Shown in pieces: positions 881 through 46,460 of a stretch of DNA of 64,000 bases. The stretch comes from Ignavibacteria bacterium (GTDB lineage: Bacteria; Bacteroidota; Ignavibacteria; Palsa-1295): NCBI GenBank assembly GCA_013287605.1, contig JABDDM010000002.1, positions 1,145-65,144 on the forward strand, read 5' to 3'. The position numbers and the translations under genes were made by a program. The notes below the pieces were generated by a model that saw nothing but the letters and a program-made list of their open reading frames with translations, was not told where the DNA came from and searched no databases. Each line of letters starts with the position of its first letter. The first letter of the stretch is position 1.

Positions 881-2539
881 ATGTCTAAAGGCGGAGCGGG
901 AAAAGTATATTTCATTCTTTACCTTGCAGTTCTACTCGAACTGCTGATCATTATCGTCGAACGCGATGACGCAGAAGACGAACTTAAAAAGGAAAAATTA
1001 GCGCTTGAACAAAAGAGCAAGCGAATTCAATTGATCGCCGAGACGATCATCAATTCGCTTCGCGGAAGTGCCACTTCCGTTAGCTCGACCTCGGATCAGA
1101 GCATGATCCTTGGAGACCCAAAGGAGCTGGAACGCCAGTTCTCCGTGCGCGTCCGCGTTGCAGATCCTTTCCGCGATTCGGTCAAGGAGCTCGATCTCCA
1201 CATCCTCCGCAACAATCAGGAGATGTCTGTCTCCAATATCGCCTCCGATTCCGTGCTCTATCCACGAACACATTCAGGCCAGGATTATACGTTCCGATAT
1301 AATTTCAAGCCGACGTTTGGAGCAGGTGAATACAAGCTTCATTTCGATGCCCGTACGAATCAGGTCGTTGGCGTAACGCCGGAAGCGGGTGTCAATGACA
1401 CAGTCAAGATCGGCGCTATCCACTTGACTGTTGGCGAATTGAGAGAAGTGAAAGACGGTATCGTCGAAAATGTACCGCTGAGAGGTTACATCGATTCTCT
1501 CTTGAGCGGCAATTACATGAATTTCGCGACGAACGTAGGTTCGAACGAATTCACTGTGAACGTGCAGCCTCCGAAGAACCCAGTCTACGATCAGCTTTCG
1601 GTATTCCCCGAAGAGAATGATTTTGCAGCGTTCCCAACGCTGGAGCTGCCAAATCCTTTGAAGATTCAGGGTGCAGAAGCAAGTAAGGTTGAAATTATCC
1701 AGACTGAGGGTAAGGGACAAATCGTTAAGGTCGATACCAACTGGGTATGGACATGGAAACCCAGTGCGATCGATGTCGGAACAACTGGCACCGTAAAGTT
1801 CTCAGCCAATGCTAAACGAGGCGGCGGTGCGAAGGACATTGCACAGGGAAGCTTCTCGTATAAGGTTGATAAATTGGAGCCTGCTATCCCATCGCGGTTC
1901 TATCCTGAGAATTCGAAGACGCATGCAGGTCTCCCCTATAGCGGAATCGTATTCAAGGCAAATGGTAAAAAGGCTAAGCTGGATGGCAGCTACAGAATGG
2001 AGCTTTATCTTGCTAACGCCAAAGTAGCTTCGAGCAACGAGCCCACCATTGAATATACCCCAGTCTTCACGCAAGACGAGGGTAAGAAGCTTGAGGTTCG
2101 TACTTATTACAAGTCGGCCTTCATGAAGGATTATATTCAGTTGCAGGATACCACACTTACAGTTCAGCCACCGCCATTGAAAGTTGCCCAATCTGATGAT
2201 CTTCAAGTCGGGGATCCATTGGATATCAGAGTTGCCCTCGGTATTGCAGGTGCCTACAGAGAAGTCGGAGCCGATCACGTTGACATCGAATCCGGTGGTT
2301 ATTTCGAGAACAGCGCCAAAAAACAAATTACTGATAAGGTCGGAAATAACTTCAACTTCGAGGCCAAGATGACAAGCAAAGCGATGAATATTCGCAGCAA
2401 GGCCGGACAAGTTGTGAACTACACGGTATCCGACCCCATCACCCATCAGAGCTTTAGTGCACAGCTCACTATAACACCGAAACAAAAGGCCAGCGGTCGT
2501 CCGGGAGTACCGGCAGTTGGGAGTGGTGGTATACATTAA
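881..2539 (+). CDS. hypothetical membrane-anchored protein with one N-terminal TM helix, a coiled-coil region and a large periplasmic domain; faint resemblance to the GldM/PorM N-terminus
   Basis: 552 aa ORF. The N-terminus has a hydrophobic helix (VYFILYLAVLLELLIIIV) followed by charged coiled-coil-like sequence. It is the first gene of a tightly spaced four-gene plus-strand cluster. The function is an inference only. Confidence 0.45.
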   Translation: MSKGGAGKVYFILYLAVLLELLIIIVERDDAEDELKKEKLALEQKSKRIQLIAETIINSLRGSATSVSSTSDQSMILGDPKELERQFSVRVRVADPFRDSVKELDLHILRNNQEMSVSNIASDSVLYPRTHSGQDYTFRYNFKPTFGAGEYKLHFDARTNQVVGVTPEAGVNDTVKIGAIHLTVGELREVKDGIVENVPLRGYIDSLLSGNYMNFATNVGSNEFTVNVQPPKNPVYDQLSVFPEENDFAAFPTLELPNPLKIQGAEASKVEIIQTEGKGQIVKVDTNWVWTWKPSAIDVGTTGTVKFSANAKRGGGAKDIAQGSFSYKVDKLEPAIPSRFYPENSKTHAGLPYSGIVFKANGKKAKLDGSYRMELYLANAKVASSNEPTIEYTPVFTQDEGKKLEVRTYYKSAFMKDYIQLQDTTLTVQPPPLKVAQSDDLQVGDPLDIRVALGIAGAYREVGADHVDIESGGYFENSAKKQITDKVGNNFNFEAKMTSKAMNIRSKAGQVVNYTVSDPITHQSFSAQLTITPKQKASGRPGVPAVGSGGIH

Positions 2540-2653
2540 ATAAAGGCAGCTCTGTAGCCGAATGAGGATATTCCGATCCCTACAAAAATGAACTCTGGGC
2601 AAATTGCAGCCAAGATGGTAAACCATATGACAATATCGATTTCTCTCAGTACG

Positions 2654-4336
2654 ATGGCCAAACGAATCACGCTGGGAAGCATCCTGGCGGCATCCATTAC
2701 ATTTATCAGTGTTTCCGCATTCGCGCAACCACTTGTGGACTCTTTGAAAGCGCTTCAACTGCGTAATGATAAGATGTACAGGACGTTGAACGCGATGGAT
2801 GATAAGGGTGCCTCATATCAGTTCACTAATGTCACCGCTTGGCATATCGTTGATCCTGATCTGTTCGATCTCATCAAGCGAGTCTACGTGGATCAGTACG
2901 GCCAGAAACAATTGAAGGATTTCGATATTCAGGACGTCTACCTCTTCGCAGCTCCTGGCAGCGGTGAGAATTTTGAGCCGTTCCATGTCTTGTTCATGGG
3001 TAAGCGCGTCAAGACCGACACGGCTGGAGGCTCTGACGTCGATCCATTCTTTGGAGGGGCAAAGAGAAAGAATACAAATGAGAAGATCCCGATTGCGTTC
3101 AAGGGCAAAGATGTTGTGCGCTTGATGCATCGCCAGCCAGCGCTGCTCGAGCAGATCAATGCAATCCAGGGTGAGATCGTTGAATTGCCTGGAGATATTC
3201 TGCCCAGTGGAGTTCAATTGATCAAATCTTCTGCACAGCGTTACATCTACCATCAGATGTTCGAAGGCTTCTACGCGAAGCGCCAGATTATTGATGAACA
3301 AAATCGAGCGCTTGGGCTGCCAACGAGTGATGAATCGTTTGGAACAGCGGATACAACGGCTGCCCTGATCGCAGGAGCGAATCCGGATGTCATTCCCAGA
3401 GATCCTGAATCCTCAGCCGCACTTCCTGACGAACAATTGGCCGCTCGCGCATTCAAGTATGGGAAGACGATCGACCTATCGATGAATCATTTGCTGGTCA
3501 ATGTCTCGCGCAATACGGCGGTCGAGCTCCAGCTTGGCAACCCCGAGGTCGGACTTCCATTCTGGAGCTCTGGCGAAGGCAGGCTTTGGCTCGTCTTGAA
3601 AAACCAGATCGGCACCGAGAGTAACTTTAAGCTCGGATTCGACTTCCCTGCAAATCTTGGTCGCGATGGAGCGGCGATCTTCCAGGCTCGAAAGCTATCT
3701 GGCTTTTTTGGTGGATCGATCGACGCTTACTTTGCGGGCATCGACTTTTTCAGCGCATTCAACATGCCACTTGCACTGAATTTCTCCATCCTGCCGGCTG
3801 GTGGGTACAATTCCAGCATTATCTACAATGGTGGTTACCCGACAGTCAATCCCAAAGCCGCAGATGGCATTCATGATTATATCGTAAAGCCAGGCCGCAC
3901 ATTTTTCCGTACTGCATTGGTTGGCCAGCTTTACATTCCGATCATCGTTCAGCTCGACCCCGCGAACTTCATCCAGTTTTCAGCCGGCGTCGGCATTCAC
4001 ACCGTCTATCGTTCGTGGATTCCCGATTCGAGCGATGCAGATTTCCGCGCCAATGGCGGCCATCCGATCGATGCGAGCCTGGTCGACAAAGTGCAGGATC
4101 TGGACCGAGTCTCTACTCCTGTAACACCACATGTGGGTCTGGAATACGTCAATCACCGCTCGAGCAAGTTCGGGCTTAATCTGTACTACGATCACTTGTT
4201 TACCTTCGGCGGATGGATCGAACTGATTGAAGATCATCTCCGAATCGAGACAAGCTACACGGCGCCACTCGTCCGCGATGCGAAGCCATACGAGCCTTCG
4301 TACTTCTTCCAAATTACACCGCGCATTTATTTCTAA
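2654..4336 (+). CDS. hypothetical exported protein, possibly an outer-membrane beta-barrel
   Basis: An internal ATG at 2654 gives a classic signal peptide (MAKRITLGSILAASITFISVSAFAQ). The protein ends in an aromatic residue (…RIYF), as many outer-membrane proteins do. The ORF track begins at 2588, but that start lacks a signal-like N-terminus. Confidence 0.55.
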   Translation: MAKRITLGSILAASITFISVSAFAQPLVDSLKALQLRNDKMYRTLNAMDDKGASYQFTNVTAWHIVDPDLFDLIKRVYVDQYGQKQLKDFDIQDVYLFAAPGSGENFEPFHVLFMGKRVKTDTAGGSDVDPFFGGAKRKNTNEKIPIAFKGKDVVRLMHRQPALLEQINAIQGEIVELPGDILPSGVQLIKSSAQRYIYHQMFEGFYAKRQIIDEQNRALGLPTSDESFGTADTTAALIAGANPDVIPRDPESSAALPDEQLAARAFKYGKTIDLSMNHLLVNVSRNTAVELQLGNPEVGLPFWSSGEGRLWLVLKNQIGTESNFKLGFDFPANLGRDGAAIFQARKLSGFFGGSIDAYFAGIDFFSAFNMPLALNFSILPAGGYNSSIIYNGGYPTVNPKAADGIHDYIVKPGRTFFRTALVGQLYIPIIVQLDPANFIQFSAGVGIHTVYRSWIPDSSDADFRANGGHPIDASLVDKVQDLDRVSTPVTPHVGLEYVNHRSSKFGLNLYYDHLFTFGGWIELIEDHLRIETSYTAPLVRDAKPYEPSYFFQITPRIYF

Positions 4337-4381: not shown

Positions 4382-5767
4382 ATGTCAGTATTGAACAAAT
4401 CTCTTCTCTGGAATCTGCCCGGCTTAGTTGTGGCCGGTCTGCTAGCGCTCACGGTGCAAACCGCGGAAGCCCAGGCGCAGCCCAACCAGGGCCAGCAAGG
4501 CATCTCGCCACAGAGCAACTGGGCCGATTCGCTTCGGATGGCACGTGCCGAGAACGAGTCGCTTACGCGAATTCTGCAGGCGGTCGAATCGATCGATACA
4601 GCCCGGCAGAACGAGCTCATCCAGTGGATCATCACCGACCGTAACATTCGCAGCCGAGTTATTTCGGCGCTTCGCAAGGCGGGAAAATCCATTTCCCCGA
4701 ACTCGGTCGCTGAGCTTACGGTAACTCAAAAGCCGCCGACCGCGGATTCTCCTGACCCAGACAACATGCAGTTGCTCCGTCTGGTGATTGAATCGATCGG
4801 TGTCTATGGAGAACCCAATATTCGGCGCATCCTGGGTCAGGATCTTTACACGAAGATTCAAGGCCGTCAGGGTTACGAATACACGCTCATCTCGACTGAG
4901 CCTGCGCAGCAGAAGATCCAGTTCGTCTATCTGGACGCTTCGCTCTTCGGCGGACAAATCATCTTTAAGTCAGGTTTTGGTTTTGGTCTTCGCGTCGGTA
5001 ACGACTATGTTGGCTATCCATTCTGGCTGCCCGGCACCCTCGGCACGTTCGGCATCCTTCGTCGTGGCACGACGGATTTCAAGATCGGTCTTGAATGGCC
5101 ACTGGGCGAATCAGGTGTGGCTCCATTTACGATCACCGGTGGCATGAAGATCAAGGAGCGCAAGCTTGAAGGTGTGATGACCTTCGCAACCGCCATCGAT
5201 CAGGACCTTGGGCTTCTGAGCGAGCAGTCGGGCAAACTTCACTTCGGTGCGGATTTTCTTACCGGCTTCAACCCAACCATCTCGACGTTTTCGAGCCGCG
5301 CAACGCTACAGCCGCAGTTCCGCACAAGCTATATTTCGAATCAATTCCCTGGCACGCTGAAGGACAGCTTGTTCTACCTGCAACTCTCTGCTCATGCCTG
5401 GGTGACGTATAAACTAACGACATTCCTTCGTGGCGCGTATATTTCAGTCGGCGCCGGCACCCACAGGATCAACGCAGTTACGATCGGACAAAAGACTGAC
5501 CCTGCAAGCCAGGATGTCGTAAATGCCGCGACATTCAGCTTCTTCGATCCGCTTATCAAAGTCGGTTACGTACACACTGGCGATGCTGGTGACGAATATG
5601 GCATGAGCCTGCAGTATTGCAATACGCTGCTTGCCGACGGCTTTGTGAAGCTCTTCCCATGGCTTCAGCTTGAAGTCAAGTACGCTGCTGTAGTTGGCCG
5701 CGACCCGGAAAAGTGGGAATGGAAAGATTATGTAATGGTCTCGCCGAAGATCATCTTCAATTTCTAA
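4382..5767 (+). CDS. hypothetical exported protein, possibly an outer-membrane beta-barrel
   Basis: Signal peptide ending …TAEAQAQ. Alternating hydrophobic stretches. C-terminal …IIFNF with a terminal Phe. 461 aa. Confidence 0.55.
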   Translation: MSVLNKSLLWNLPGLVVAGLLALTVQTAEAQAQPNQGQQGISPQSNWADSLRMARAENESLTRILQAVESIDTARQNELIQWIITDRNIRSRVISALRKAGKSISPNSVAELTVTQKPPTADSPDPDNMQLLRLVIESIGVYGEPNIRRILGQDLYTKIQGRQGYEYTLISTEPAQQKIQFVYLDASLFGGQIIFKSGFGFGLRVGNDYVGYPFWLPGTLGTFGILRRGTTDFKIGLEWPLGESGVAPFTITGGMKIKERKLEGVMTFATAIDQDLGLLSEQSGKLHFGADFLTGFNPTISTFSSRATLQPQFRTSYISNQFPGTLKDSLFYLQLSAHAWVTYKLTTFLRGAYISVGAGTHRINAVTIGQKTDPASQDVVNAATFSFFDPLIKVGYVHTGDAGDEYGMSLQYCNTLLADGFVKLFPWLQLEVKYAAVVGRDPEKWEWKDYVMVSPKIIFNF

Positions 5768-5790
5768 TGCAAGCCGATCTGGCGAATTTC

Positions 5791-5822
5791 ATCCCCCGAC
5801 TTATTCGGGGGATTTTTTTTGT
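5791..5822 (+). terminator. rho-independent terminator
   Basis: Hairpin ATCCCCCG-ACTTATTC-GGGGGAT followed by a T8 run, immediately after the stop of the 4382..5767 gene. Confidence 0.65.
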
Positions 5823-5890
5823 CTGAGGGCCACAGCGGGCACAAACTAGAGTAGCATTCCATTAGCCTTACTGTTACATTATTGCAATTC

Positions 5891-7228
5891 ATGCTCAAAC
5901 GCGCACTCGCACTTTCGGTCGTTGTTTGCCTTGTTTGTTCCAGTCAACTTTTTGCGCAGCAGAAGGAGACGGCCAAGCTGCGCGATGCATCAAAGCGGCC
6001 TGCGCGTTACGGACTGCAGTCAGTCAAAGGTGATGCGCTGTTCGATATCAAAGATGTCGATATCACCCACTTCCCGGAAATGAGCGTCATCTTTTCCGCG
6101 GTCAACAATCGCAACCAGTTTATTCGGACGCTGAAAAAAGACGATGTTCTTCTGGTCGAGAATGGTCAGAAACGCCCAATCATCTCGCTCGATCTTATCA
6201 GCGCCCAAAACCGGGTACCGATTGACATCGTTTTTGTCATCGATCAAACCGCGAGCATGCGCGACATGATCGCGACCGTCAAGCAGAGTGTCATTTCGTT
6301 TGCGGATCAATTACGCAGGCATGGTTCCGATTTTCGACTAGGCATGGTGCGCTTCGGAGATGCGGTCGAATGGGTGAGCCCAGAACTCACAGACGACGCC
6401 GTGACATTCGAAAAATGGGTTGCCGCAGTTGAAGCCAGCGGCGGCGGTGATGTGAAGGAGAATGCACTCGAAGGCCTTCACGCTGTGGCTTCCATGCCAC
6501 TTCGACGCATCGCTATACGCATGGCCGTGCTCATCACCGATGCGCAGTGCCATCTTGCGGGCGAGCATGGAGATGGTACTACCGACTTCACAATGCACTC
6601 CATGGGAGATTTTCTCTACGAGCGTGAAGTCCGTCTGCTTACCGTCACCCCACCCGAATTTCCGGAATATCATGATCTTGCGACACTCACCGAAGGTGCA
6701 AGTTTCGACCTTGGAAGGAGCTTCGACAACGTGCTTGGAGATCTCGTCCAGGACATCACGAGTCTCTACTCACTGAAGTATTTATCGCAGTCAACACTTG
6801 CGCCGGACTCAGTCCGCATCGATATTCTTCGTTCGGAAGACCGCTCCCCTCTCGCCTCACGCAAGTTGATTGCCCTTGAACCTGGCCGTCGGTTTGTGTT
6901 CGAAGATCTTCTCTTTGGTGCAAACCAGGCCTCGCTTGCTTCTGAGTTTGTCCCTGAACTTGAACGCGTCGTCCGGCTGATGCACGTGCGCCCTACTATG
7001 CGTGTCCGGATCGAGGGACATGCCGATTCAACCGGTTCTGAGGAGCTCAACATGCGACTCTCCCAGGAGCGAGCCGAAGCGGTAAAGCATTATCTGATCA
7101 CTTCAGGAATCCAGCCTGAGCGTCTGGAGACCGTTGGCTATGCTGCTTCGCGTCCGCTTGCTTCGAATGCAACTGAAGAAGGAAGACGCGCGAATCGGCG
7201 AATCGAGTTTCTGATCCTGGTGAAATGA
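5891..7228 (+). CDS. von Willebrand factor A domain protein with a C-terminal OmpA-like peptidoglycan-binding domain
   Basis: Signal peptide MLKRALALSVVVCLVCSSQLFAQQ. vWA-like core (VFVIDQTASMRD). C-terminal OmpA motif (RVRIEGHADSTGSEELNMRLSQERAEAV…RRIEF). The ORF track start at 5882 is a TTG; the ATG at 5891 is preferred. Confidence 0.8.
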   Translation: MLKRALALSVVVCLVCSSQLFAQQKETAKLRDASKRPARYGLQSVKGDALFDIKDVDITHFPEMSVIFSAVNNRNQFIRTLKKDDVLLVENGQKRPIISLDLISAQNRVPIDIVFVIDQTASMRDMIATVKQSVISFADQLRRHGSDFRLGMVRFGDAVEWVSPELTDDAVTFEKWVAAVEASGGGDVKENALEGLHAVASMPLRRIAIRMAVLITDAQCHLAGEHGDGTTDFTMHSMGDFLYEREVRLLTVTPPEFPEYHDLATLTEGASFDLGRSFDNVLGDLVQDITSLYSLKYLSQSTLAPDSVRIDILRSEDRSPLASRKLIALEPGRRFVFEDLLFGANQASLASEFVPELERVVRLMHVRPTMRVRIEGHADSTGSEELNMRLSQERAEAVKHYLITSGIQPERLETVGYAASRPLASNATEEGRRANRRIEFLILVK

Positions 7229-7863: not shown

Positions 7864-10800
7864 TTACCTTGAGATGATCATCTTTTTCACCATCGGCTTT
7901 TGATCGCCTGCGGTGAATTCGTAAAAGTATACGCCATTTTGCAACTCGTTTGTCCTGACGAGCACGCTATACCGGCCTTGTGCAAATGAATGTTGATCGA
8001 CTGGACGCAACACTTCGCGCCCGGACACATCAACCACGCGGATCGAAATCTGGGTGTTATCATGCGCCACATCAAATGTGATGGACGTATGATGTGAACC
8101 TCCGACAGGATTCGGCGAATTCTGCTGCACGAACGTGCCCTGGACATCGCCCGTTTGAAGATGCGTACTTCCGCAGGACGAATCAACGACGATCATCCCA
8201 CTCACCGTAAGTGGTGCAACCTGGTTCGTATTGAAGAACTGGAAGCTTGTGTGCTTCAGCTCTGTCTTCCCGCCGATCGTCGCATCCTTGTTGATCATGA
8301 ACGTCACACGCAGCAGCACCCCTGCTTGTGTCAACGGATCGATCGGATCGCGAAGGTCGTAATGCACTGACTCAATTGTCTGAGCGCTGCTATTCGTAGT
8401 CGTCAGCGTCCAATTTGAATTCGAAACATCGCCGCCTTTTTCGATCTTCACCAACTGCGCGATTGTCGTATCGAACGTAAACGTACCCGAGAGTTCGTGC
8501 ACATTTGCACTCACAGCAATCGGTGTCCGGAGACGAAGTTCTTCATAGACCATGTCACCAGGACGAGCAAGGTAGTTTCCGAATGCAATCTGCGTGGCAT
8601 TCGGGGCTTTGTCAAGTTCGGTAAGCCCAAGCGGGAAGGTTGAATTGTCGTCAAGCGTGAATGTCAGAGTCGCAGTGCGTGGCGTCAACTGCAGCGGCGA
8701 ACTCGCGAGGAACGTTGATGCGAGCGGAATTGAATCTCCCGGATGCAATGTGAAGCTTGTCGGAATGGAGCTGAAATCGAAATCTGTCATGTTCGGTCCA
8801 GCGATCGAGACACCGGTCACGACCAGATCCCAATCGCCGGCATTGACCAGCATCGTATTCTGCGAACTGCTGCCGCCGACAAATTGACTTCCAAAATCCA
8901 GCGTTGCCTGCGCAAGTTGTGCAATCGGCGCTACACCGATACCATTGATCACGACCGTATCATTCTTCATGTCACCACCAACTGCTTCAAGCTTGGATTG
9001 GAACACGCCGCGCTGCATGGGACTGAAGGTAATATGGATCGGTTGTGTGGTCCGTGTCGGAACGACGATTGTACCAGTAGCATCGAGCGAGAACGGTGGC
9101 GTCTGTGGCTGAAGCGAAATCGACTTCACTGTGAGCGGGGTGCTGGACGTATTGACCAGGCTGACCGTCTGCATTGCAGATTTGAACACGCGTACCTTAC
9201 CGAAATTGATATACGTTGAATCCAGGACAAGTTTACGATATTCATCTCTTCCGATGAGACGGATCGTATCGGTCAGGCCGTCGTCATACGTGAAGACGAG
9301 ATCCGCCGAATGAAGAAGTCGCGGCACATTTGGCGAGAAGGTGATCGTATAGTCAGACTTCGCACCGATCCAGATGCTGTCAGTTGAGGTCGAACCAGAG
9401 CCTGTCGCAATCGAAAACTCGTTATTGGCATCATTGACAATCGCAAACGATGTTTTCAAATACCAGTCACCGGCGTTTGTCAGGGTCAGCGTCTTTGACG
9501 AGGTCCCGGGCATCACAACAAGGCCGCAGTCGACTACTCTTGTAGAGAAGGTAGGAACAGGTGCAGCACCAACACCGAGCAAGAGCACGGAGTCTGGTTT
9601 GATATCGCCATCACGCGCGTGCAAATACCCTGTAAATGAACCGCGAACCGGCGGCTGAAAATAGATTGCTACATTCGATGTGTCCTGCGCCCGAACGGTC
9701 GAGACGGTGTCGCCAACGGTAAACGCCGTCCCAGTCTGCGAAATACTAATGTTGCCTACATGCAAAATCGCATTTGACCCATTGGAGAAGATGGCCTGGC
9801 GCAAGGCTCTTGTTTTGACGCGTACGTTGCCGAAGTCGATCGACTTCTGAGCAAACTGGATGTACTGCGATTGCTCGCGCCCGAGCAGCACTACCCTCCC
9901 CCTCGAGCTGTCTGTATACGTGATCGAAAGCAGCGCCTGATGCAGCATTCCGGTCTTTGCATTCGTTACAAACGTTACGGCCAGACTTGTATCGCGGCCC
10001 GCCGGTATTCTAAATGCCGAGCGAGGCGTCGCTGCTGTAATTGTAAAATCCTTTTGGTCAGGACCAGTGATCTCCAGATGTGCAACACGCAATTCGAAAT
10101 CGCCGGTGTCCGAAAGTACGGTAAAGAGCGTCGAAGGAATTCCAGCAGGATGAATGCCAAAATCCAGCGTATCGAGGCTCAACCTCGGATACGCCATTGC
10201 GCCGAAGCCAACAAGATAGACCGAATCCATCTGACCATTGACGATCGTATGAAGCCAGGCGGCCACCGGGCCATGGACGCGCGGTGTGAACGATACCTCG
10301 ATCGAATCCTTCTGAAACGAACTCAGCGTTAACGGCGCATAAGGTACCTGGAACGGAGCGCTTAGGGGAATGATATATGGACGCGTGACGATCGGCAGCA
10401 CTACATTACCATTATTGCGTATCGAAACAGTATCCGTCTTCGTTGCGCTGACTTCCACTTTCCCAAAGTCGATCAGATCGCGACCTAAAAATACCTTCGG
10501 TTCAATTTCGTAGCCGTCGAGATTGACATACTGCGCACTCTTGTCGTCGTAATCAAACTCGAGCCATGCCTGCCGCTGACCTTCAGGTCCGGTACCAGGC
10601 GCAAAGCTGATGTTAAAATTGATCGATGAATCAACATCGAGCAGGAAGCTGGTCAGATTCGGCGAGTATTGGTATGCGGAAGCGTTTGGACCGTGGAGTC
10701 CAGCACTGACTACCGTCGCCGTCATGTTGCCTTTGTTCGTAAGAGTAACGGTCTTCGTGACACGATCGCCTCGTCGAACATTTCCATAACTGAGCGATGT

Positions 10801-15267: not shown

Positions 15268-16155
15268 ATGGCTTCTTCGATCAAGCGATTGCTTCGACAT
15301 GGATTACGCAGCTACCTTACTTACACTCCCGTTAAGTTGGGCCGTTTTCCATTGATGATGTTCTTCCACAAGTTCTTGTCGGAGCCAGTCATCGAAGAGG
15401 TGGCGACGAAGGACCGCGGAAGAATGATTCTCGAGATTGATGACTGGACGCAGTACACCATGTACTACAATCTCTATGAGTCAAAATATGACAAGATCAT
15501 GCTCGCGCTAATGAAGGACACAAATGTGGTCCTTGATATTGGCGGGAACATTGGTCAGCATACCCTTTGGTTTGCTCGATATGCTAAGAAGGTCTATACC
15601 TTTGAGCCGCTCCCACGTCTCATCGAACGTTTGAAAAAACACATTGCGATGAACCGCTTGGAAAACAAGGTCACTCTAGTTACAAAAGCTCTAAGTGATG
15701 AACCTAAGACGTTAAGGATTACCGATCCTGAGCCCGGTATGAGCGGAATCGCGAGTACGATTTTGGGTCGTAATCAGAATGAGAAAACGGTTGAAATCGA
15801 CGCAATCCGACTTGATGACTATCTTGATTCTGAAGGAGTCAAGACAGTTGATCTAATTAACATCGATATCGAGGGCGCTGAGTTATTCGCACTCAAGGGG
15901 ATGCCCGAACTCTTGAAACGCTGCTCGCCCCCTCTTATTCTGGAAATGAATGACCTGATGATGGGACTTGCTGGATATACGTTCGATGACGTTCAGAATT
16001 ACCTCAGTCAGTTCGGATACCAGCCTTATCAAATGTTGAAGAATGGCCTTTCGGGTCCTGTACCTAAGATTATTTCCGACTCGGAGAATTTTTGTTTCTT
16101 GACTGCAGAACATTTGCAGATGCAGAAGATCAAAGACATTGTCGTTTCTGGATGA
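15268..16155 (+). CDS. FkbM-family SAM-dependent methyltransferase
   Basis: Motifs VVLDIGGNIGQHT, …YTFEP…, DLINIDIEGAELFAL are typical of the FkbM methyltransferase family. Confidence 0.75.
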   Translation: MASSIKRLLRHGLRSYLTYTPVKLGRFPLMMFFHKFLSEPVIEEVATKDRGRMILEIDDWTQYTMYYNLYESKYDKIMLALMKDTNVVLDIGGNIGQHTLWFARYAKKVYTFEPLPRLIERLKKHIAMNRLENKVTLVTKALSDEPKTLRITDPEPGMSGIASTILGRNQNEKTVEIDAIRLDDYLDSEGVKTVDLINIDIEGAELFALKGMPELLKRCSPPLILEMNDLMMGLAGYTFDDVQNYLSQFGYQPYQMLKNGLSGPVPKIISDSENFCFLTAEHLQMQKIKDIVVSG

Positions 16156-16457
16156 TGACATTCTAAGTCCAGCAAGTTGCGCGAGGGCTCACCACCTCGG
16201 TGCCCGAATGGGAGCCGAGATCTTCAGCGGAAATCTGATACTGTCTGAACCTTGATTCTTGAGATTTTTGGAGTTGGGAGATGAGTTGACAGAAGCGATT
16301 TAATGCCATAATTTATGAAACTTTAAGCTTGTCGGAGGCGTTTACTTTAAGCGGGATTTCGGCCGTCAATCGGCGTGCCCAACCCATGGGATCCCCAACT
16401 AACCCTTCGGACTGTGATACCCTGCTCCCTAAAGATTTTGGTTTCGGATCCGACCCC

Positions 16458-16560
16458 GTGGATTCCCGCATGTGCGGGAATGACAATGACGGCGGTTGAA
16501 TGCGCGAAGCGCAGTAGAACGACGATCCTGTCCTTACCCGCGAAAGCGGGAATCCATCCC
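16458..16560. repeat. MITE-like palindromic repeat element, copy A (about 105 bp), with terminal 26-nt palindromic units
   Basis: GGATTCCCGCATGTGCGGGAATGACA … CCTTACCCGCGAAAGCGGGAATCCATCC. Each unit is itself a palindrome (CCCGC-N4-GCGGG) and the two units are inverted relative to each other. A near-identical element occurs at 45985-46086. Confidence 0.55.
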
Positions 16561-16915
16561 CAAACGTTGAGCCAAAACTCCCATTAGTTTTCTATACGAA
16601 GGAGAATTATGAATAAAGGGACTAACATACTTGACTCAGCAGACTAGCCCAGGTCTGCACCTCCCTACCTACCAACACGTTATGGCCTTTTCCACGCATA
16701 CAGTTGAGAACTCCTCAGCGCTTGTTGAAAGCTTCCGGCAATAAATGCGAATCATGTGCCCCGACTTTTGTAGATAATACGTCGCATCACTCTAAGTATC
16801 TGATTTTAAAAGAGTTAGTGCCTATTGGGGTGTGAGGAGCTTTCGGAGTTGAAAAACCCCGAAATAGTTGAGGGTAACCGTTGACGCGGTTACCCTCAAG
16901 GTCGATCTAAAAAGC

Positions 16916-16984
16916 GGGGCGGGCTATTGGTAGCAAGCTTGATTTGGCATCCGGCTAATGGGGGTTCGAATCCCCTCCGCTCCA
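16916..16984 (+). other. tRNA-like 3' fragment (T-arm plus acceptor 3' strand), possibly an integration-site remnant
   Basis: …GGGGGTTCGAATCCCCT CCGCTCC A… is a canonical T-stem-loop (TTCGAAT) plus 7-nt acceptor strand plus discriminator. It is followed by CTG rather than CCA. A convincing D-arm or anticodon arm could not be folded from the upstream 45 nt. Confidence 0.3.
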
Positions 16985-17075
16985 CTGCTTTAGATCTCCA
17001 AATATACAACGGGATAACTCACATTTCCACCTAGAAGTGCCGAAAGGTGATAAATCCGAGGTTATCCACACTTAA

Positions 17076-17297
17076 TCACTGCGGAATCTCGATAATCCGC
17101 TCGCCTAGAGCGTTTTCTAAAAGCAGGATAGTCTTGAGCGTCAGGTTCGTCTCACCAGCAAGGATAGCGCTGATGTAGGACTTACCCTTACTCGTCGCAT
17201 CCGCGAGGTCTTGTTGATTCCAACCCTTTCGCTCTAGGATCATAGCGATCCGTTCAGCGATCTCCAGTTGGCGCTTTTCGAGAGTGATTTTAGCCAT
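17076..17297 (-). CDS. XRE-family helix-turn-helix transcriptional regulator
   Basis: 73 aa. The HTH_XRE signature (…WNQQDLADATSKGKSYISAILAGETNLTLKTILLLENALG…) is present. Confidence 0.75.
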   Translation of the reverse strand: MAKITLEKRQLEIAERIAMILERKGWNQQDLADATSKGKSYISAILAGETNLTLKTILLLENALGERIIEIPQ

Positions 17298-17406
17298 TCA
17301 CTAGTAAGACAAAGTTTATTCAAAGATAGTTCAATTATATTGGAACCGCTTACTCCGTTTCTTCGTATCTATATACGTAAGAGTTCTATTATAATTGAAC
17401 TACTAA

Positions 17407-18339
17407 ATGCAAACCGTACCAAAGACCTTACTCGAAGTGATCCGATATTTCTCAGACAAGAAGAACTGTGTTGAGTTCGTGAAGAACCTCCGTTGGCCGG
17501 ATGGTAGCGTGGCGTGTCCGAAGTGTGGGACCCTCAAAGTGAAGGAGCTTGCTACACGTCAGATATGGCAGTGTGGTGAGAAGGGCTGTCGCAAGCAGTT
17601 CTCAGTTAAGGTCGGTACGATCTTCGAGGATTCAGCGCTCACACTTGACAAGTGGCTGATTGCAATGTGGATGATCTCAACGTGTCGCAATGGTGTGTCC
17701 AGCTACGAAATTGCACGTTCCCTCGGTATCACTCAGAAGAGCGCATGGTTTCTCTTGCACCGCGTCCGTGAATGTATGCGTCGTGGTACGGTTACAAAGC
17801 TCACAGGGACCGTTGAAGTCGATGAGACCTACATCGGTGGCCTTGAGAAGAATAAGCACTCCTGGAAGAAAGTACACGGTGGCAACATCGGCAACAAAGT
17901 TATTGCGATGGGCTTAGTTGAGCGCGATGGTGACGTTATTGCAAAAGTTGTTGATGATACCACGTATACTTCGCTAAGCAAAGAGATAGAACTGCACGTC
18001 GAGAAGGATGCAAAGCTCTATACCGACGAATGGCGTAGCTACATGAAGTTGGGAGCGACATACGATCACTTCGTAGTCAATCACGGTGCAAAAGAGTACG
18101 TTCGAGGTAATGTCCACACCAACACCATTGAAAGCTTCTGGTCGCTCTTAAAGCGCGGCTTGAAAGGCACGTACATTCACGTTGCTCCGTTTCATCTTGA
18201 TCGTTACATCGACGAACAGGCACTCCGTTTCAACCTTCGTAAGGGTTCGGAGTTCAACCGCCTTGAGGTAGTAACGGCGCAAAGCATCGGACGTAGACTC
18301 ACTTGGAATGAACTGACTGGCAAAGCCGCCACAGAATGA
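17407..18339 (+). CDS. IS1595-family transposase with an N-terminal zinc ribbon and a DDE domain
   Basis: N-terminal CxxC…CxxC zinc ribbon (VACPKCGT…WQCGEKGC), followed by the ISXO2-like DDE transposase core. 310 aa. Confidence 0.75.
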   Translation: MQTVPKTLLEVIRYFSDKKNCVEFVKNLRWPDGSVACPKCGTLKVKELATRQIWQCGEKGCRKQFSVKVGTIFEDSALTLDKWLIAMWMISTCRNGVSSYEIARSLGITQKSAWFLLHRVRECMRRGTVTKLTGTVEVDETYIGGLEKNKHSWKKVHGGNIGNKVIAMGLVERDGDVIAKVVDDTTYTSLSKEIELHVEKDAKLYTDEWRSYMKLGATYDHFVVNHGAKEYVRGNVHTNTIESFWSLLKRGLKGTYIHVAPFHLDRYIDEQALRFNLRKGSEFNRLEVVTAQSIGRRLTWNELTGKAATE

Positions 18340-18548
18340 ATCAGAAACCGAACGCATCACACGGTCCCGAGAACTCAGAACCCGACAACCTAGACCAAAA
18401 GGACAATGGGAAGTCGAGCGAAGAGAACGACTTAAAAAAGTGGGACGAGTTCAAGAACCTCGTCCAGAAGGTAGTAAACCTCCCCGAGTCAGATGTCGAA
18501 AAGGTCAAGCGCAAAGTCCCAAGCAACCGAAAATCAAAAGAAAAATAA
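18336..18548 (+). CDS. hypothetical small, highly charged protein; start overlaps the transposase stop (ATGA)
   Basis: 70 aa, low complexity, rich in K, E, D and N. The only support is translational coupling to the transposase. Confidence 0.3.
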   Translation: MNQKPNASHGPENSEPDNLDQKDNGKSSEENDLKKWDEFKNLVQKVVNLPESDVEKVKRKVPSNRKSKEK

Positions 18549-18608
18549 TCGTTAGACGCGAGGGGATGACAGGGGCAAGATGGTGGCGAGAAAACGTCAA
18601 TATTTAGG

Positions 18609-19007
18609 CTACGGAGTTCTCATTTTTCGCCTTTTCAACTCTTTCCCCATCCTAGTAGCGGTGAACTGCAATCCCCCTTTGTCCAAGTAGGTGTTGTAGT
18701 CTGCTAGAAGTTGCTTGTTCGTCACCTTCGTAAAATCGATACTATCTAACTCCGGCGAGGAGCGAGGCCCTTTGATTCGGGAAAGAATATCCTGAGTCTT
18801 TTCCATGTCCGTTGGATGCTTCCCACCTCCTGAAGATAGCCCCCCATGCGACGAATGCCCATGCAACTTCGAATTCTTTGCTCCCTCCCTCGCTATGTGC
18901 CGTTGATGGATTTGCTCTCTCGTAAGACCTGATTTGCCGTGACCTAGTTGTCTCATAATGATATTAAATGGATTAACGTACTTGCACGAACGTTGACACG
19001 GCATCAA
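18609..19007 (-). CDS. hypothetical protein
   Basis: 132 aa ORF in the accessory island with no recognisable motif. Confidence 0.35.
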   Translation of the reverse strand: MMPCQRSCKYVNPFNIIMRQLGHGKSGLTREQIHQRHIAREGAKNSKLHGHSSHGGLSSGGGKHPTDMEKTQDILSRIKGPRSSPELDSIDFTKVTNKQLLADYNTYLDKGGLQFTATRMGKELKRRKMRTP

Positions 19008-19233
19008 AATTCCACCTGTTCACAAAATCCTTCTCTCAGCCGCGGTTTGGCTGGCTTTCACGATAGGTCCGACACAGGCCAATCAATCTAGGCACAGCGT
19101 AGACCGTCATGAACGATGGCCCGTAAAAACACTTGAAGATGGCTTCGAGCCGAACGGCGTTGTAGAACACACATCGATTGACAAGCTAGCGAATGAAGAT
19201 ACTCTACGATACCTTGGTAATGATTCTCCACGC

Positions 19234-19704
19234 ATGGAGCGAGAGAAACAGATAATTGAATTCACAGCGATCCTTTTGGGCTACAGGATAGAGCACGATG
19301 GCGACCTTCACATTGCACTGAGAGATTCGCAAACCAGACAAAGGATGATTGCCGAAATTCCCGATTCGATTGAGTCTCCGAAACACGGGCGTCTTTTCGC
19401 CTCTTTGCGGATCGATCTCGAAAGGAGGTTCGGAAGAGCTACTTTGAACTTCAACTGGAGCAAGTTCTATAGAAAGAAAAGGGTGTTTGTTTCCATCCAA
19501 GGTGTCCTGTTTGTTGACAGACGGCATGGGAATAAGGTCGAGGCTAAGAACTTCGTTGAGTGCCATCCTGTTTTTATCCATGCGGTTTCCCGGGTAATGG
19601 CCCCGCTCTCAACATATGGCAGTCATGGAAGAGAAGATCAAGGTAGGGGATGTTGTCCAGCTCAAACAGGGAGGTCAAATCATGACCGTAACGCAGATCA
19701 ATAA
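19234..19704 (+). CDS. hypothetical protein
   Basis: 156 aa ORF. The 3' end overlaps the DUF2158 ORF in another frame, so the true end or start is uncertain. Confidence 0.35.
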   Translation: MEREKQIIEFTAILLGYRIEHDGDLHIALRDSQTRQRMIAEIPDSIESPKHGRLFASLRIDLERRFGRATLNFNWSKFYRKKRVFVSIQGVLFVDRRHGNKVEAKNFVECHPVFIHAVSRVMAPLSTYGSHGREDQGRGCCPAQTGRSNHDRNADQ

Positions 19705-19885
19705 AAAGATGGGTGATGACTTTGAATCTGCGTTTTGCTCGTGGCCTCTGAATGGTGTCGCCCATCACGGGGCGTTTGCGCTTGCAGCACTCAAGAGAGC
19801 ATCTAAGGGATCTATTCGAGCCTTTAGGATTCAGGGCTTCTTGGCTGGAATTTTTCCCTTCATGAATAGGGGCAAATCTTCATAA
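19616..19885 (+). CDS. DUF2158 (YodC-like) small protein
   Basis: KVGDVVQLKQGGQIMTVTQI…FCSWPLNG matches the YodC/DUF2158 pattern (VGDVVxLKSGGPxMTV…CxWF). The real start is probably the internal Met (MEEKIKVGD). Confidence 0.55.
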   Translation: MAVMEEKIKVGDVVQLKQGGQIMTVTQINKKMGDDFESAFCSWPLNGVAHHGAFALAALKRASKGSIRAFRIQGFLAGIFPFMNRGKSS

Positions 19886-20112
19886 GTTGATCAGGCCCGA
19901 CTTCAATTCGAACACGGAGTCAACCCCTTACTTCTTAAAGCTTTTTCGATCATTTCGACGGATTTCCTCTCGCAGTCGTCGTAAGTTCTCCTCCTTGGGA
20001 TTTTTGGGGAGAGCCATGGGAGCCTCCTTCGCAGAGTGTTTGGAATTCTCCTTAATAATTTTTTTCTGTTCAGGGGATAAAATGTCTTGCGTCGTTGGGT
20101 ATAGCATCTAAC

Positions 20113-21126
20113 TTACTCTTTGTGCTTTGAAACAGCGTGAAATCTAGTCTTGTAGGCTTCCTCGGACATCCATCTGAAGCCGTCGCTAGGTGTGATCAGC
20201 CCAATATGTATTTCGCCACCGACAGTCGGCAATCTATCGCTGAATTGCTGCGACTTGATCATCAGGTCTACCAAGAACTCAACAAACTCAATGGCCGCTT
20301 GTTCCGAGAAAAATCTCAATTCCGAAGACAGTCTGCTGTAGGCAAACGGAAAATCGAACCGTTCCTCAGATTTTGGCACTAATGTGTTGAAATCTGGGAC
20401 ATCTCCAGTATAGCCGTTCCCCTGCAAGTAGTTTTTTAGTCTTTCCTGGTAGAGGCCTAGGGCAAAGTAAGCTTGATGGATCGCCACACCCCACCCCCTG
20501 TCGTCGATACCATTCACAACTCGTTGAATCACGTCGTGTTGGCCACCAAATACGATACTATATCTGCTGGGATCCTCATTGCACTCGGTAATCTCTGGTT
20601 CGTCCCCATATTTGATCACGATTTTCCAAATTTCTGGATCATGACTCCCTTTGGAATATCCCGAAACGATTACTTCCATTGGTGAATAATATTGTGAGGA
20701 AGCTTTGTACTCCTTGTCAAGGTGCTCGCTTAGTGCCTTAGTCAAACTGTCCATTTTCTTCGCAGCGGTCTTGAACCCAGCTGACTCTTGGAATTCCTCA
20801 ATAATAGTCTTTAGACTCTTCGCGCCCAGGCTCGCTAATCCCGCAAAAAGTAGCCCTACTGGAAGGTGTTCCTTGGGCTTACCAAGTGGAAATAGTTTGG
20901 TAAGTGATGGTATCTGGTTAGACGGTATGGGTTGAGAGAGTTCGAAGAGTTTCTCGCTCGTAAGGGTGACCGGTACACCGTTAGCATCTGTTTTGGGATT
21001 GCCATTGGATTCAAAAAGATGCTGATATATTGAAATCCAAGGCACGTATGGATTACTGATTGTGCCCAAACTATCGCAGCCAAGGACAATGCAGTTACTA
21101 GTCGCCAAACTGATGGTGGTGGTCAT
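20113..21126 (-). CDS. hypothetical protein with an N-terminal Ntn-hydrolase (proteasome beta/HslV-like) signature
   Basis: The N-terminus MTTTISLATSNCIVLGCDSLGT parallels HslV/proteasome-beta N-termini (MTTIVSV…VIAGDGQAT), with a Thr nucleophile directly after the Met. 337 aa. Lower GC than the flanking DNA. Confidence 0.4.
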   Translation of the reverse strand: MTTTISLATSNCIVLGCDSLGTISNPYVPWISIYQHLFESNGNPKTDANGVPVTLTSEKLFELSQPIPSNQIPSLTKLFPLGKPKEHLPVGLLFAGLASLGAKSLKTIIEEFQESAGFKTAAKKMDSLTKALSEHLDKEYKASSQYYSPMEVIVSGYSKGSHDPEIWKIVIKYGDEPEITECNEDPSRYSIVFGGQHDVIQRVVNGIDDRGWGVAIHQAYFALGLYQERLKNYLQGNGYTGDVPDFNTLVPKSEERFDFPFAYSRLSSELRFFSEQAAIEFVEFLVDLMIKSQQFSDRLPTVGGEIHIGLITPSDGFRWMSEEAYKTRFHAVSKHKE

Positions 21127-21427
21127 CTTCTCTATATTTGGAAGTGAGGAGGCAACAAATATACGTACTATTCTAATCGTTTCACGAAGATGCCGGTGAA
21201 TCTGGCCAAGTCCCCTGCTGAGTCAAGTATATCAGTCCCTGAATAAAGTTTTCACACACACTAGCGTTGCTTGAAGGAAATATTGATTCCAGATCAGAAT
21301 CGAGGATGTAACTGTGACTGACCTCTTATTATGAAAAACGTTTACACATCTCGCGGCTGATCCGCCTGGAGGATTCCATGAGATCCTTCGTCGGCCCAGG
21401 ATGACAAATCGAAATCCTAATCCCCAA

Positions 21428-21471
21428 CTGTTCCCCGTTCCCCGTTCCCTGTTCCCTGTTCCCTGTTCCCC
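21428..21471. repeat. tandem array of the heptamer CTGTTCC(C/T), about 6-7 copies
   Basis: CTGTTCCCCGTTCCCCGTTCCCTGTTCCCTGTTCCCTGTTCCCC read directly, about 140 bp upstream of the ssb start. Confidence 0.8.
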
Positions 21472-21609
21472 GACTCGCAGAGTCTCGATTGTTGAAAATT
21501 CGCAGAAACGGTTACTTCTCTTTTCGAATTATATGTGACGTGTTCTCACGCTGGGAAGGGTATAACCTTCGGCGCAGACGATAACCAAATAGAATATTTA
21601 GTCGACGAT

Positions 21610-22080
21610 ATGGGTAAGAGTTTGAATAAGGCGACGATTATCGGGAATGCCGGTAAGGATGCAGAGGTCCGATACACAGGTACTGGCAAAGCGGTCGCGA
21701 CCTTCAGTGTTGCGACCACAGATTCATGGAAAGACAAGACCTCCGGTCAGATGCAGGAAAAGACTGAGTGGCACAATATCGTGGCCTGGGAACGGCTTGG
21801 TGAGATCTGCGGGGAATATGTCAAGAAGGGCAAGCGAGTCTACATCGAGGGCCGCATCCAGTCGCGAAGCTATGATGATAAAGAAGGCAACAAGCGTTAC
21901 ATCACAGAGATTGTAGCAAGCGATATGATCCTTCTGGATGGCGGCACGCCACGCGAAGGCGGCGGCAACCACTCGGAGGGCTCGTACTCGAATAATCGAA
22001 GCGCAGCTCCAAGCCAGTCTAGCGCACCGGTGGTCCATGAGTTCGATCAGGCTAGCGCCGTCGACGATCTTCCGTTCTAA
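21610..22080 (+). CDS. ssb: single-stranded DNA-binding protein
   Basis: OB-fold SSB motifs (LNKATIIGNAGKDAEVRYT…TEWHNIVAWERLGE…VYIEGRIQSRSYDDKEG). Gly/Ser/Asn-rich tail. Acidic C-terminal tip DDLPF. Start taken at the internal ATG (MGKSLNKATIIGN). Confidence 0.9.
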   Translation: MGKSLNKATIIGNAGKDAEVRYTGTGKAVATFSVATTDSWKDKTSGQMQEKTEWHNIVAWERLGEICGEYVKKGKRVYIEGRIQSRSYDDKEGNKRYITEIVASDMILLDGGTPREGGGNHSEGSYSNNRSAAPSQSSAPVVHEFDQASAVDDLPF

Positions 22081-45696: not shown

Positions 45697-45815
45697 GGGG
45701 TCAGGGAACAGGGCACGGTAAACAGGGAACAGATAGGGATTGAAGGCGGGAGAGTGCAAAAACTTCGATCATCCCTCCCGCTGTTCCCTGTTCCCATTCC
45801 CTGTTCCCTGAGCCC
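45697..45815. repeat. imperfect palindrome about 115 bp long whose arms are arrays of GGGAACAG / CTGTTCCC
   Basis: CAGGGAACAGGGCACGGTAAACAGGGAACAG … (central GCGGGAG…CTCCCGC) … CTGTTCCCTGTTCCCATTCCCTGTTCCCTG. It uses the same heptamer as the array at 21428-21471. Confidence 0.7.
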
Positions 45816-45984
45816 GTGTGTAAATGCGTTATTCATAATCCAAGATTCAACCTTCGATTTTGTGCTGAAAACGGCAATTCGCGATTGCCAAGCTTGGTGT
45901 GTGTGAAAACTTTATTCATAATTCCCCTTCGTATAGAAAACTAGTGGGGTGTTTTTGAGATCGACCCACATCCTAGACTCTGGG

Positions 45985-46086
45985 GATGGATTCCCGCATT
46001 CGCGGGAATGACAAGATGGAGACTCTGTGGCGCTTCGCGCGTTACTCCCTGTTGATGTCATTCCCGCACAGGCGGGAATCCATGGG
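45985..46086. repeat. MITE-like palindromic repeat element, copy B
   Basis: GGATTCCCGCATTCGCGGGAATGACA … TGTCATTCCCGCACAGGCGGGAATCCA. The interior shares GCGCTTCGCGC with copy A in inverted orientation. Confidence 0.55.
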
Positions 46087-46460
46087 GAAGGAAGGATGCA
46101 ACTCGCGTGGGTCGGGCGTCTCGCCCGACCTAGGGTGGCGCGGGGTACTCTCTCTTGTTGCGACCTACCGGGAGTCGGGCGAGAGGCCCGACCGCTGAAG
46201 AGCGGAGAATTTGCCTACGCTACATAAAACGCATAATTATCCACCATCGTTCCCTTGGGAGAACGAATACCTCACGAGAATGAGCAGCTTTATGAACCAG
46301 ATCAATCTACAACCCTCGGAACTCACAATAGGGACACGATGTGTTCTTTTGCCAGCTTTCGACCCTGAGCGCAGGTTCGTCCCGAAACCCAACTCTCTCA
46401 CCGTCCATTGCACAAGATCACAAGTATTTGAGATGCCCAAAAACGTTATAATGAACTGGC

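Follow-up and report, generated by a model that had tools for sequence, protein, structure and literature searches.

A transposon of the IS1595 family with passenger genes very probably split a repeat-rich intergenic cluster upstream of ssb

In the window analysed here, a 64,000-nucleotide stretch of contig JABDDM010000002.1 from an Ignavibacteria bacterium, 5,454 bp separate the gene of an FkbM methyltransferase (15268–16155; Pfam Methyltransf_21 match, 6.9e-24) from ssb (21610–22080; PF00436 match, 2e-36). The initial annotation of this sequence took the gap for an accessory island of about 5.4 kb, bounded by an element resembling a miniature inverted-repeat transposable element (MITE) and by an array of CTGTTCC heptamers, and proposed from the presence of both at a second locus near 45.7–46.0 kb that they mark recombination or integration boundaries. 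This raises the question of where the accessory DNA ends and what the repeats on its two sides are. Our results indicate that positions 16618–21239 are very probably a single IS1595-family transposon with passenger genes, inserted in module M2 of a pre-existing repeat cluster. The features that bear on this are given below, with terminal inverted repeats abbreviated as TIRs, the target-site duplication as TSD, the insertion sequence as IS, the 28-nt Neisseria Transformation Sequence as NTS and the degenerate Ssn-related motif as SRM. Contigs used for comparison carry L-numbers; L013, L014, L166 and L167 come from the same metagenome as L040.

16618–21239, + strand: IS1595-family cargo transposon ('transporter IS') with TIRs and an 8-bp TSD, absent from L040; same design in L003 and L171
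16618–16642, + strand: left TIR, GGGACTAACATACTTGACTCAGCAG, 25 bp; same TIR type in L003, L171 and L042
21215–21239, − strand: right TIR, GGGACTGATATACTTGACTCAGCAG, 23/25 identical to the left TIR
16610–16617, no strand: left TSD copy, TGAATAAA, present as a single copy in the unsplit site (45911–45918)
21240–21247, no strand: right TSD copy, TGAATAAA, adjoining the right TIR
16580–16617, + strand: module M2, left half (…TTTTCTATACGAAGGAGAATTATGAATAAA), interrupted where the transposon inserted; aligns at 95% with 45910–45948 in reverse complement
21240–21263, + strand: right half of module M2 (TGAATAAAGTTTTCACACACAC); the same 20 nt lie beside the L013 element
16449–16562, no strand: MITE-like copy A, a doublet of NTS/SRM-type hairpins in inverted arrangement (arms 16459–16485 and 16534–16562, core GCGCGAAGCGC); ancestral intergenic DNA
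21328–21349, + strand: module M1 (ATTATGAAAAACGTTTACACAT); ancestral intergenic DNA
21428–21472, + strand: heptamer array, (CTGTTCC/CCGTTCC) x 6; ancestral intergenic DNA
45697–46092, − strand: unsplit second copy of the cluster, with inverted heptamer arrays (45697–45741 and 45781–45815), M1 (45816–45839), M2 (45897–45948) and MITE-like copy B (45981–46092)

A repeat search across the whole window returned a 26-nt inverted pair at 16617–16642 and 21215–21240, which holds the two TIRs. These open with GGG and account for the two TIR matches in the window, both at the ends of the element, as compared with none expected by chance. Immediately outside both TIRs stands a perfect 8-bp target duplication. 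When 16618–21239 was left out, the flanks formed one stretch colinear with the reverse complement of 45697–46092, in the order hairpin doublet, …GAAGGRGAATTA-TGAATAAA-GTTTTCACACACAC, a second similar motif and the heptamer array, and the unsplit copy reads GAATTA-TGAATAAA-GTTTTCACACAC without a break. The window contains two oppositely oriented copies of a repeat cluster of about 400 bp, one of them split by the insertion, and the duplicated TGAATAAA shows the trace of an 8-bp staggered cut. Since the flanks join into one cluster that matches the unsplit copy, the repeats are the halves of a landing site and not boundaries; they flank the island because, on insertion, the hairpin doublet and the heptamer array came to lie on opposite sides of the element.

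The same site without the transposon was found in L040, a contig of which about 21 kb are syntenic with window positions 5205–26964, at about 80% nucleotide identity. Only 622 bp separate FkbM from ssb there, and the transposon is absent as a whole 4,622-bp block; in this spacer one hairpin arm remains, as do a diverged M2, a tandem array in place and a highly conserved ssb upstream region, in the module order of the window. In agreement with this, a cluster look-up gave a second member at least 90% identical for both FkbM and ssb, and none for the transposase or for a 337-amino-acid (aa) protein encoded in the island. The initial annotation was therefore right that the segment is accessory, as the comparison with a related genome shows, but not about its extent: the accessory DNA is 16618–21239 (4,622 bp), as set by the TIRs and the TSD, and is smaller than the 5.4-kb gap. 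Taken together, the unsplit copy within the window and the empty orthologous site in L040 settle the landing-site reading without experiments: this is a transposon insertion of an ordinary kind, with clean limits, in a repeat-rich intergenic region. It also corrects a misreading, as repeats on either side of an island can be the halves of a repeat-rich landing site. The insertion point lies 370 bp upstream of ssb, beyond the conserved ssb leader, and ssb was probably left undisturbed.

The core of the element contains the following genes and candidate operators (ORF, open reading frame; HTH, helix-turn-helix):

17407–18339, + strand: intact DDE transposase of the IS1595 family, zinc ribbon at the N terminus; Pfam and NCBIfam cut-offs passed
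17076–17297, − strand: XRE/HTH_3 regulator (8.8e-12), divergent from the transposase gene
17327–17402, no strand: two GTTC-N10-GAAC palindromes, candidate operators, between the XRE and transposase genes
18336–18548, + strand: accessory ORF of 70 aa; its start codon and the transposase stop codon overlap (ATGA)

The transposase matched PF12762 at 4.7e-40, PF12760 at 4e-11 and NCBIfam NF033547 with 189.5 bits (cut-off 75), and in an alignment of 15 homologues D139, D207, E242, C37, C40 and C56 were invariant and C61 nearly so. The intact transposase, the TIRs identical at 23 of 25 positions and the perfect TSD together indicate a recent insertion by a DDE transposase. In the mechanism we propose, the transposase would bind the 25-bp TIRs and insert through an 8-bp staggered cut into module M2 of a mosaic intergenic cluster upstream of ssb, in which the order is NTS/SRM hairpin doublet, M2, M1 and heptamer array. 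The XRE protein is probably a repressor of the shared promoter region, acting through the two palindromes, which stand at 17329–17346 and 17383–17400 within the 109-bp region between the divergent genes; such palindromes are also present in L170 (two) and L013 (one), and an XRE gene is found at the same position in L004, L013, L170, L174 and L042. The small ORF coupled to the transposase is a conserved accessory gene: counterparts stand after the transposase gene of at least four relatives (L003, L014, L171 and L174), and the small ORFs of the family share an acidic/KNFE-like motif. A candidate in L042 (5476–5712) aligns poorly with the others.

Some points weigh against a straightforward transposition. 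The GC content of the insert (0.45–0.50) is the same as that of the left flank. In public data only one copy of the exact element was found, exact-protein look-ups having given only contigs of the source organism, and its mobility is consequently deduced from structure. The functions of the cargo and the repression by XRE are predictions from sequence, as would be any expression of the tRNA-like element in the left arm. Lastly, an element in L013 has the same 20-nt right flank, which could mean placement by homologous recombination between M2 copies instead of fresh transposition.

The design of the element recurs in relatives. The closest other transposase (73% identity) belongs to an element of 5,106 bp in L003 (L003:4689–9794), with TIRs GGGACTAACTTACTTGACTC…, an 8-bp TSD (CATTGATA) and a core of HTH gene, transposase and small ORF; its cargo consists of P63C, a BglII endonuclease and an MT-A70 methylase, the restriction-modification pair lying at 8183–9423. 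In L171, an element of 2,957 bp (transposase 62% identity, TSD CTAAGTTA) carries a C5-methylase and an ORF (2009–3704), and in L174, from Candidatus Kapaibacterium, HTH gene, transposase and small ORF are accompanied by a C5 methylase, a 335-aa ORF and Vsr (4518–6916). The simplest member, in the viral-collection contig L042, has the same TIR type, the transposase and the HTH gene directly beside the left TIR. These related elements occupy different genomic sites, and their cargo is mostly restriction-modification genes.

Members of the IS1595 family, according to PMC8101967, make 8-bp TSDs and have a zinc finger together with a DDE domain. ISs with passenger genes, or 'transporter ISs', have been described for the family (Siguier, Gagnevin and Chandler, 2009, as cited in PMC3129680). 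An N-terminal zinc ribbon is expected in all groups except IS1016. The window element has a DDE_Tnp_IS1595 domain, a zinc ribbon, the 8-bp TSD and TIRs at both ends, and it shares with the IS1595 transporter ISs both TIRs starting with GG and genes between the TIRs. It differs from the known ones in the divergent XRE gene, the palindromic candidate operators, the coupled small ORF and the placement of cargo on both sides of the core, which holds for most members described here but not for L171. In contrast to its relatives with restriction-modification cargo, it carries an N-terminal nucleophile (Ntn) hydrolase unit and a tRNA-like element. The element is a new member, and perhaps the sign of a new subgroup, of the IS1595 transporter ISs; the group can be defined by the TIR GGGAYTNAYWKACTTGACTCA, the 8-bp TSD and the XRE gene with coupled small ORF (except in L171), and its members ferry restriction-modification genes, and cargo of other kinds, between uncultured bacteria, Kapabacteria-like ones included.

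That the repeats themselves delimit exchangeable islands, as recombination or integration sites in the manner proposed for dRS3/NTS in Neisseria, is a reading we consider very improbable. Both repeat types do occur at both loci, as had been noted at the outset, and the hairpins are of the NTS/SRM class, which PMC11893778 describes in Neisseria as enriched near variable genes and as the target of a phage recombinase. However, the joints of the island lie at a TIR/TSD signature, the left one 55 nt past the MITE-like element and the right one 188 nt short of the heptamer array; in L040 the site retains a hairpin arm as well as a tandem array, with no island; and Pfam, NCBIfam and PADLOC family searches found no integrase or site-specific recombinase among the island proteins. 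The second locus, which had been counted as a further variable region, is intergenic DNA of about 880 bp between divergent genes, poor in ORFs, with the unsplit cluster and no cargo. It is equally hard to credit that only a core of about 1.3 kb (XRE gene, transposase and small ORF) is the mobile IS, with the Ntn and tRNA-like blocks older or separately acquired. The cargo is wholly different between family members, and the L042 element, with its HTH gene beside the left TIR, is what such a core might resemble, but no internal TIR copy was found in the window with three mismatches allowed, the 4,622 bp are missing from L040 as one block, and in L003 and L171 the cargo also lies within TIRs and TSD.

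A further possibility, that the transposon was placed by homologous recombination or gene conversion between M2/M1 clusters and that the TGAATAAA duplication dates from an older insertion elsewhere, appears unlikely, if less so than the two above. It draws on L013/L014, which hold a distinct member of the family (transposase 68% identical to that of the window): the diverged right TIR of L013 (GGGATTGACTTAC…) abuts the same 20 nt, TGAATAAAGTTTTCACACAC, as the window element. In addition, the two M2 copies in the window are 95% alike and the L040 orthologue is more diverged, suggesting exchange between copies, and the array units are common across loci within a genome and differ between genomes. 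Against it, the transposases are only 68% identical while the flanking housekeeping proteins are at least 90% identical, so the two elements are not simple copies of each other; and the shared target is predicted from the right side only, since the left TIR of L013 was not found in the 470 nt available and its left end is off the contig. If both elements used one target, GAATTATGAATAAA is expected directly before the L013 TIR. Either a hot spot in M2 or recombination that moved the element from one cluster to another could account for the shared flank; the elements of L003 and L171 have unrelated targets. Transposition into M2 remains our preferred explanation for the window, and the repeat cluster may be a favoured landing site. 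The stronger proposal, that the subgroup prefers the exact M2 position in NTS/SRM-rich clusters as a harmless 'safe harbour' for ferrying defence-type cargo, of which the Ntn unit could be a new defence or toxin module, is speculative and on balance doubtful.

The cargo lies on both sides of the core, with a hairpin and a tRNA-like element on the left and, on the right, two or three hypothetical ORFs, a DUF2158 protein and a two-gene unit of the Ntn hydrolase and a 59-aa protein:

16868–16899, no strand: perfect 13-bp hairpin in the left non-coding arm of the transposon
16916–16987, + strand: tRNA-like element with a 7-bp acceptor stem containing G3:U70, an intact T arm and degenerate D and anticodon arms
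18609–19007, − strand: 132-aa hypothetical ORF, an uncertain gene; no family matches, not called in the public assembly
19204–19581, − strand: 125-aa hypothetical ORF; no family matches; overlaps a 156-aa + strand ORF (19234–19704), one of the two being real
19616–19885, + strand: small DUF2158 protein (2.5e-07; PHROG 3261 at 2.4e-12)
19928–20107, − strand: 59-aa ORF immediately downstream of the Ntn-fold gene
20113–21126, − strand: 337-aa protein with a proteasome-like Ntn-hydrolase fold; no curated family, Met1-Thr2 invariant

The genes first listed for the island (XRE, IS1595 transposase with coupled ORF, DUF2158) are present, and searches with PADLOC, NCBIfam, PHROGs and PDB sequences matched only the XRE and DUF2158 proteins among the cargo. 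The 337-aa protein had no match in Pfam, NCBIfam, PADLOC or PDB sequences. Its AlphaFold model (pLDDT 88.1, pTM 0.81) was compared with the PDB using Foldseek, and all 50 matches listed were 20S proteasome subunits (E about 5e-6, target TM-score at most 0.7); among viral models, the best match was a phage 'proteasome beta' protein (1.5e-8), and HslV matched weakly (E 0.025). Its family comprises 887 cluster representatives at E ≤ 1e-10, and Met1-Thr2, G16, D18, S19 and K77 were invariant in an alignment of 50 sequences. The description 'Ntn-hydrolase-like' in the initial annotation thus holds at the level of the modelled fold, which has the proteasome-like alpha-beta-beta-alpha arrangement, with Thr2 as the predicted N-terminal nucleophile. 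The likeness to bacterial proteasome-like Ntn hydrolases (20S beta, HslV) consists of the fold and the invariant Thr after the initiator Met; in contrast to these, the cargo protein (337 aa) contains additional helices amounting to about 140 aa and shows no detectable sequence similarity, has a partner protein of about 60 aa and occurs in mobile contexts. An unannotated proteasome-fold family of about 900 cluster representatives, found in mobile contexts, is hereby flagged.

The two-gene arrangement recurs in L175 (2107–3308) and L176 (5001–6216), where an Ntn-fold homologue is followed by an ORF of 64–69 aa, as at 19928–21126 (− strand) of the window; sequence similarity among the three small proteins is weak. 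Neighbours of the unit in L175 and L176 include transposases, an Mrr nuclease and RHS proteins. In relatives the corresponding slot is occupied by restriction-modification genes, which makes a role of the Ntn unit in defence or addiction a reasonable guess, and only that.

In the left arm, the hairpin had been noted before as an 11-bp perfect one and proved to have 13 pairs, and what had been called a tRNA-like 3' fragment is tRNA-like but not confined to a 3' part, as both acceptor strands and the T arm are present. The tRNA-like element (fold z = −2.7) lies directly after the hairpin, and 89 nt separate it from the XRE stop codon. ARAGORN made no call at 16916–16987, and the sole model match to exceed the reporting threshold, also the best of the clan, was a weak end-match to tmRNA at 22 bits, under the tRNA gathering score of 29. 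In L013, a genuine tRNA-Thr(CGT) is located at 315–389, likewise after a hairpin and 73 nt from the XRE stop; no convincing sequence homology between it and the window element was seen beyond the T loop. Since no left TIR was found in the 470 nt available, the L013 tRNA-Thr may itself be transposon cargo. With Rfam models, nothing scored above threshold at either repeat locus, and the sub-threshold matches (Yfr1, mascRNA, miRNA) reflect hairpins only. A weak match to the cyanobacterial small RNA Yfr1 was also observed within the transposon at 16809–16862 (− strand; 25.8 bits, gathering score 38, E 0.053) and is probably due to chance.

With regard to the repeat cluster, the MITE-like copy A and the heptamer array that had been described are real, at 16449–16562 and, with six units, at 21428–21472, and both repeat types are indeed present at both loci (16.4/21.4 kb and 45697–46092). 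The hairpin motif GGATTCCCGC-N4-GCGGGAAT has seven matches in the window, all at 16.46–16.56 and 45.99–46.08 kb, as compared with 0.01 expected, and a 14-mer of the heptamer array has five where none is expected. Copies A and B of the MITE-like element are identical at 82 of 111 positions in inverted orientation and fold as long hairpins as single-stranded DNA (z = −5.8 and −6.4), each arm having the form GTCATTCCCGC-N4-GCGGGAATCCA. NTS, which contains dRS3, and SRM belong to a widespread class of hairpins published in 2025 (PMC11893778). Three of the four MITE arms match the SRM degenerate pattern, which has five sites in the window compared with 0.37 in shuffled sequences; with 3–4 mismatches in 28 to the Neisseria NTS consensus, over the limit of one, the arms are SRM-like and not canonical NTS. 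They thus fit the published pattern in a Kapabacteria-like host and not in Neisseria, extending the NTS/SRM class to such an organism. The window holds four SRM-type arms, and the motif is very common elsewhere, in more than 120 viral-collection stretches (a lower bound), often in the form of inverted doublets spaced by about 80 nt. In the window, a crude GIY...YIG pattern scan gave no convincing match to ssnA (GIY-YIG, cd10448), and TGAATAAAGTTTTCACAC had 25 scattered single matches, estimated to be near chance, in a genome collection from which the source genome is absent.

As in REPIN doublets (PMC3116915), two palindromic arms are inverted around a short spacer and fold into a long hairpin. 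No RAYT gene was seen in the window. In mosaic repeat clusters such as the Neisseria intergenic mosaic elements (NIMEs) and the bacterial interspersed mosaic elements (BIMEs) of E. coli, short modules recur between genes in varying combinations and attract mobile elements. The window cluster resembles these in its mosaic of modules (hairpin doublets, M1/M2, a palindrome P and tandem arrays), while the module sequences differ. The M2/M1 cluster of L166 has no doublet between M2 and palindrome P, where the second locus of the window has one; this and the single arm in L040 suggest that hairpin doublets come and go. L166 was considered as an orthologue of the second locus and rejected, as its flanking genes differ and it represents another paralogous cluster.

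The heptamer arrays are fast-evolving tandem repeats. At the position of the window array, L040 has (ACCACTG) x 4.9, and arrays of (GATTTATGG)n at two loci and of (ACCACTG)n are found in that metagenome (L040:10920–10959, L040:11356–11389 and L166:4864–4894). Array units are common within a genome and different between genomes, a pattern which suggests that they are homogenised within a genome and fits exchange between clusters. Locus 1 has one heptamer array only; the arrays of the second locus (45697–45815) are inverted and can together fold into a hairpin of about 120 nt (z = −6.8 as single-stranded DNA).

The M1/M2 module, of about 120 nt, contains two direct copies of ATTATGAAnAAnGnnTTnCACAC about 75 nt apart (45816–45948; 21240–21349; L166:4735–4854; L167:6540–6663), and recurs in L166 and L167 at up to 85% identity, compared with about 80% for flanking genes. 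M2 has the look of a small gene, with a ribosome-binding site and an ATG (MNKVFTHT...), but its copies differ by a frame-breaking indel and the downstream peptides are unrelated, so the module is probably non-coding. Adjoining the second cluster is a palindromic doublet, GGGTCGGGCGTCTCGCCCGACC … GTCGGGCGAGAGGCCCGAC (46103–46200), 45 nt of which are 97.8% identical to L166:4943–4987, at a non-syntenic locus.

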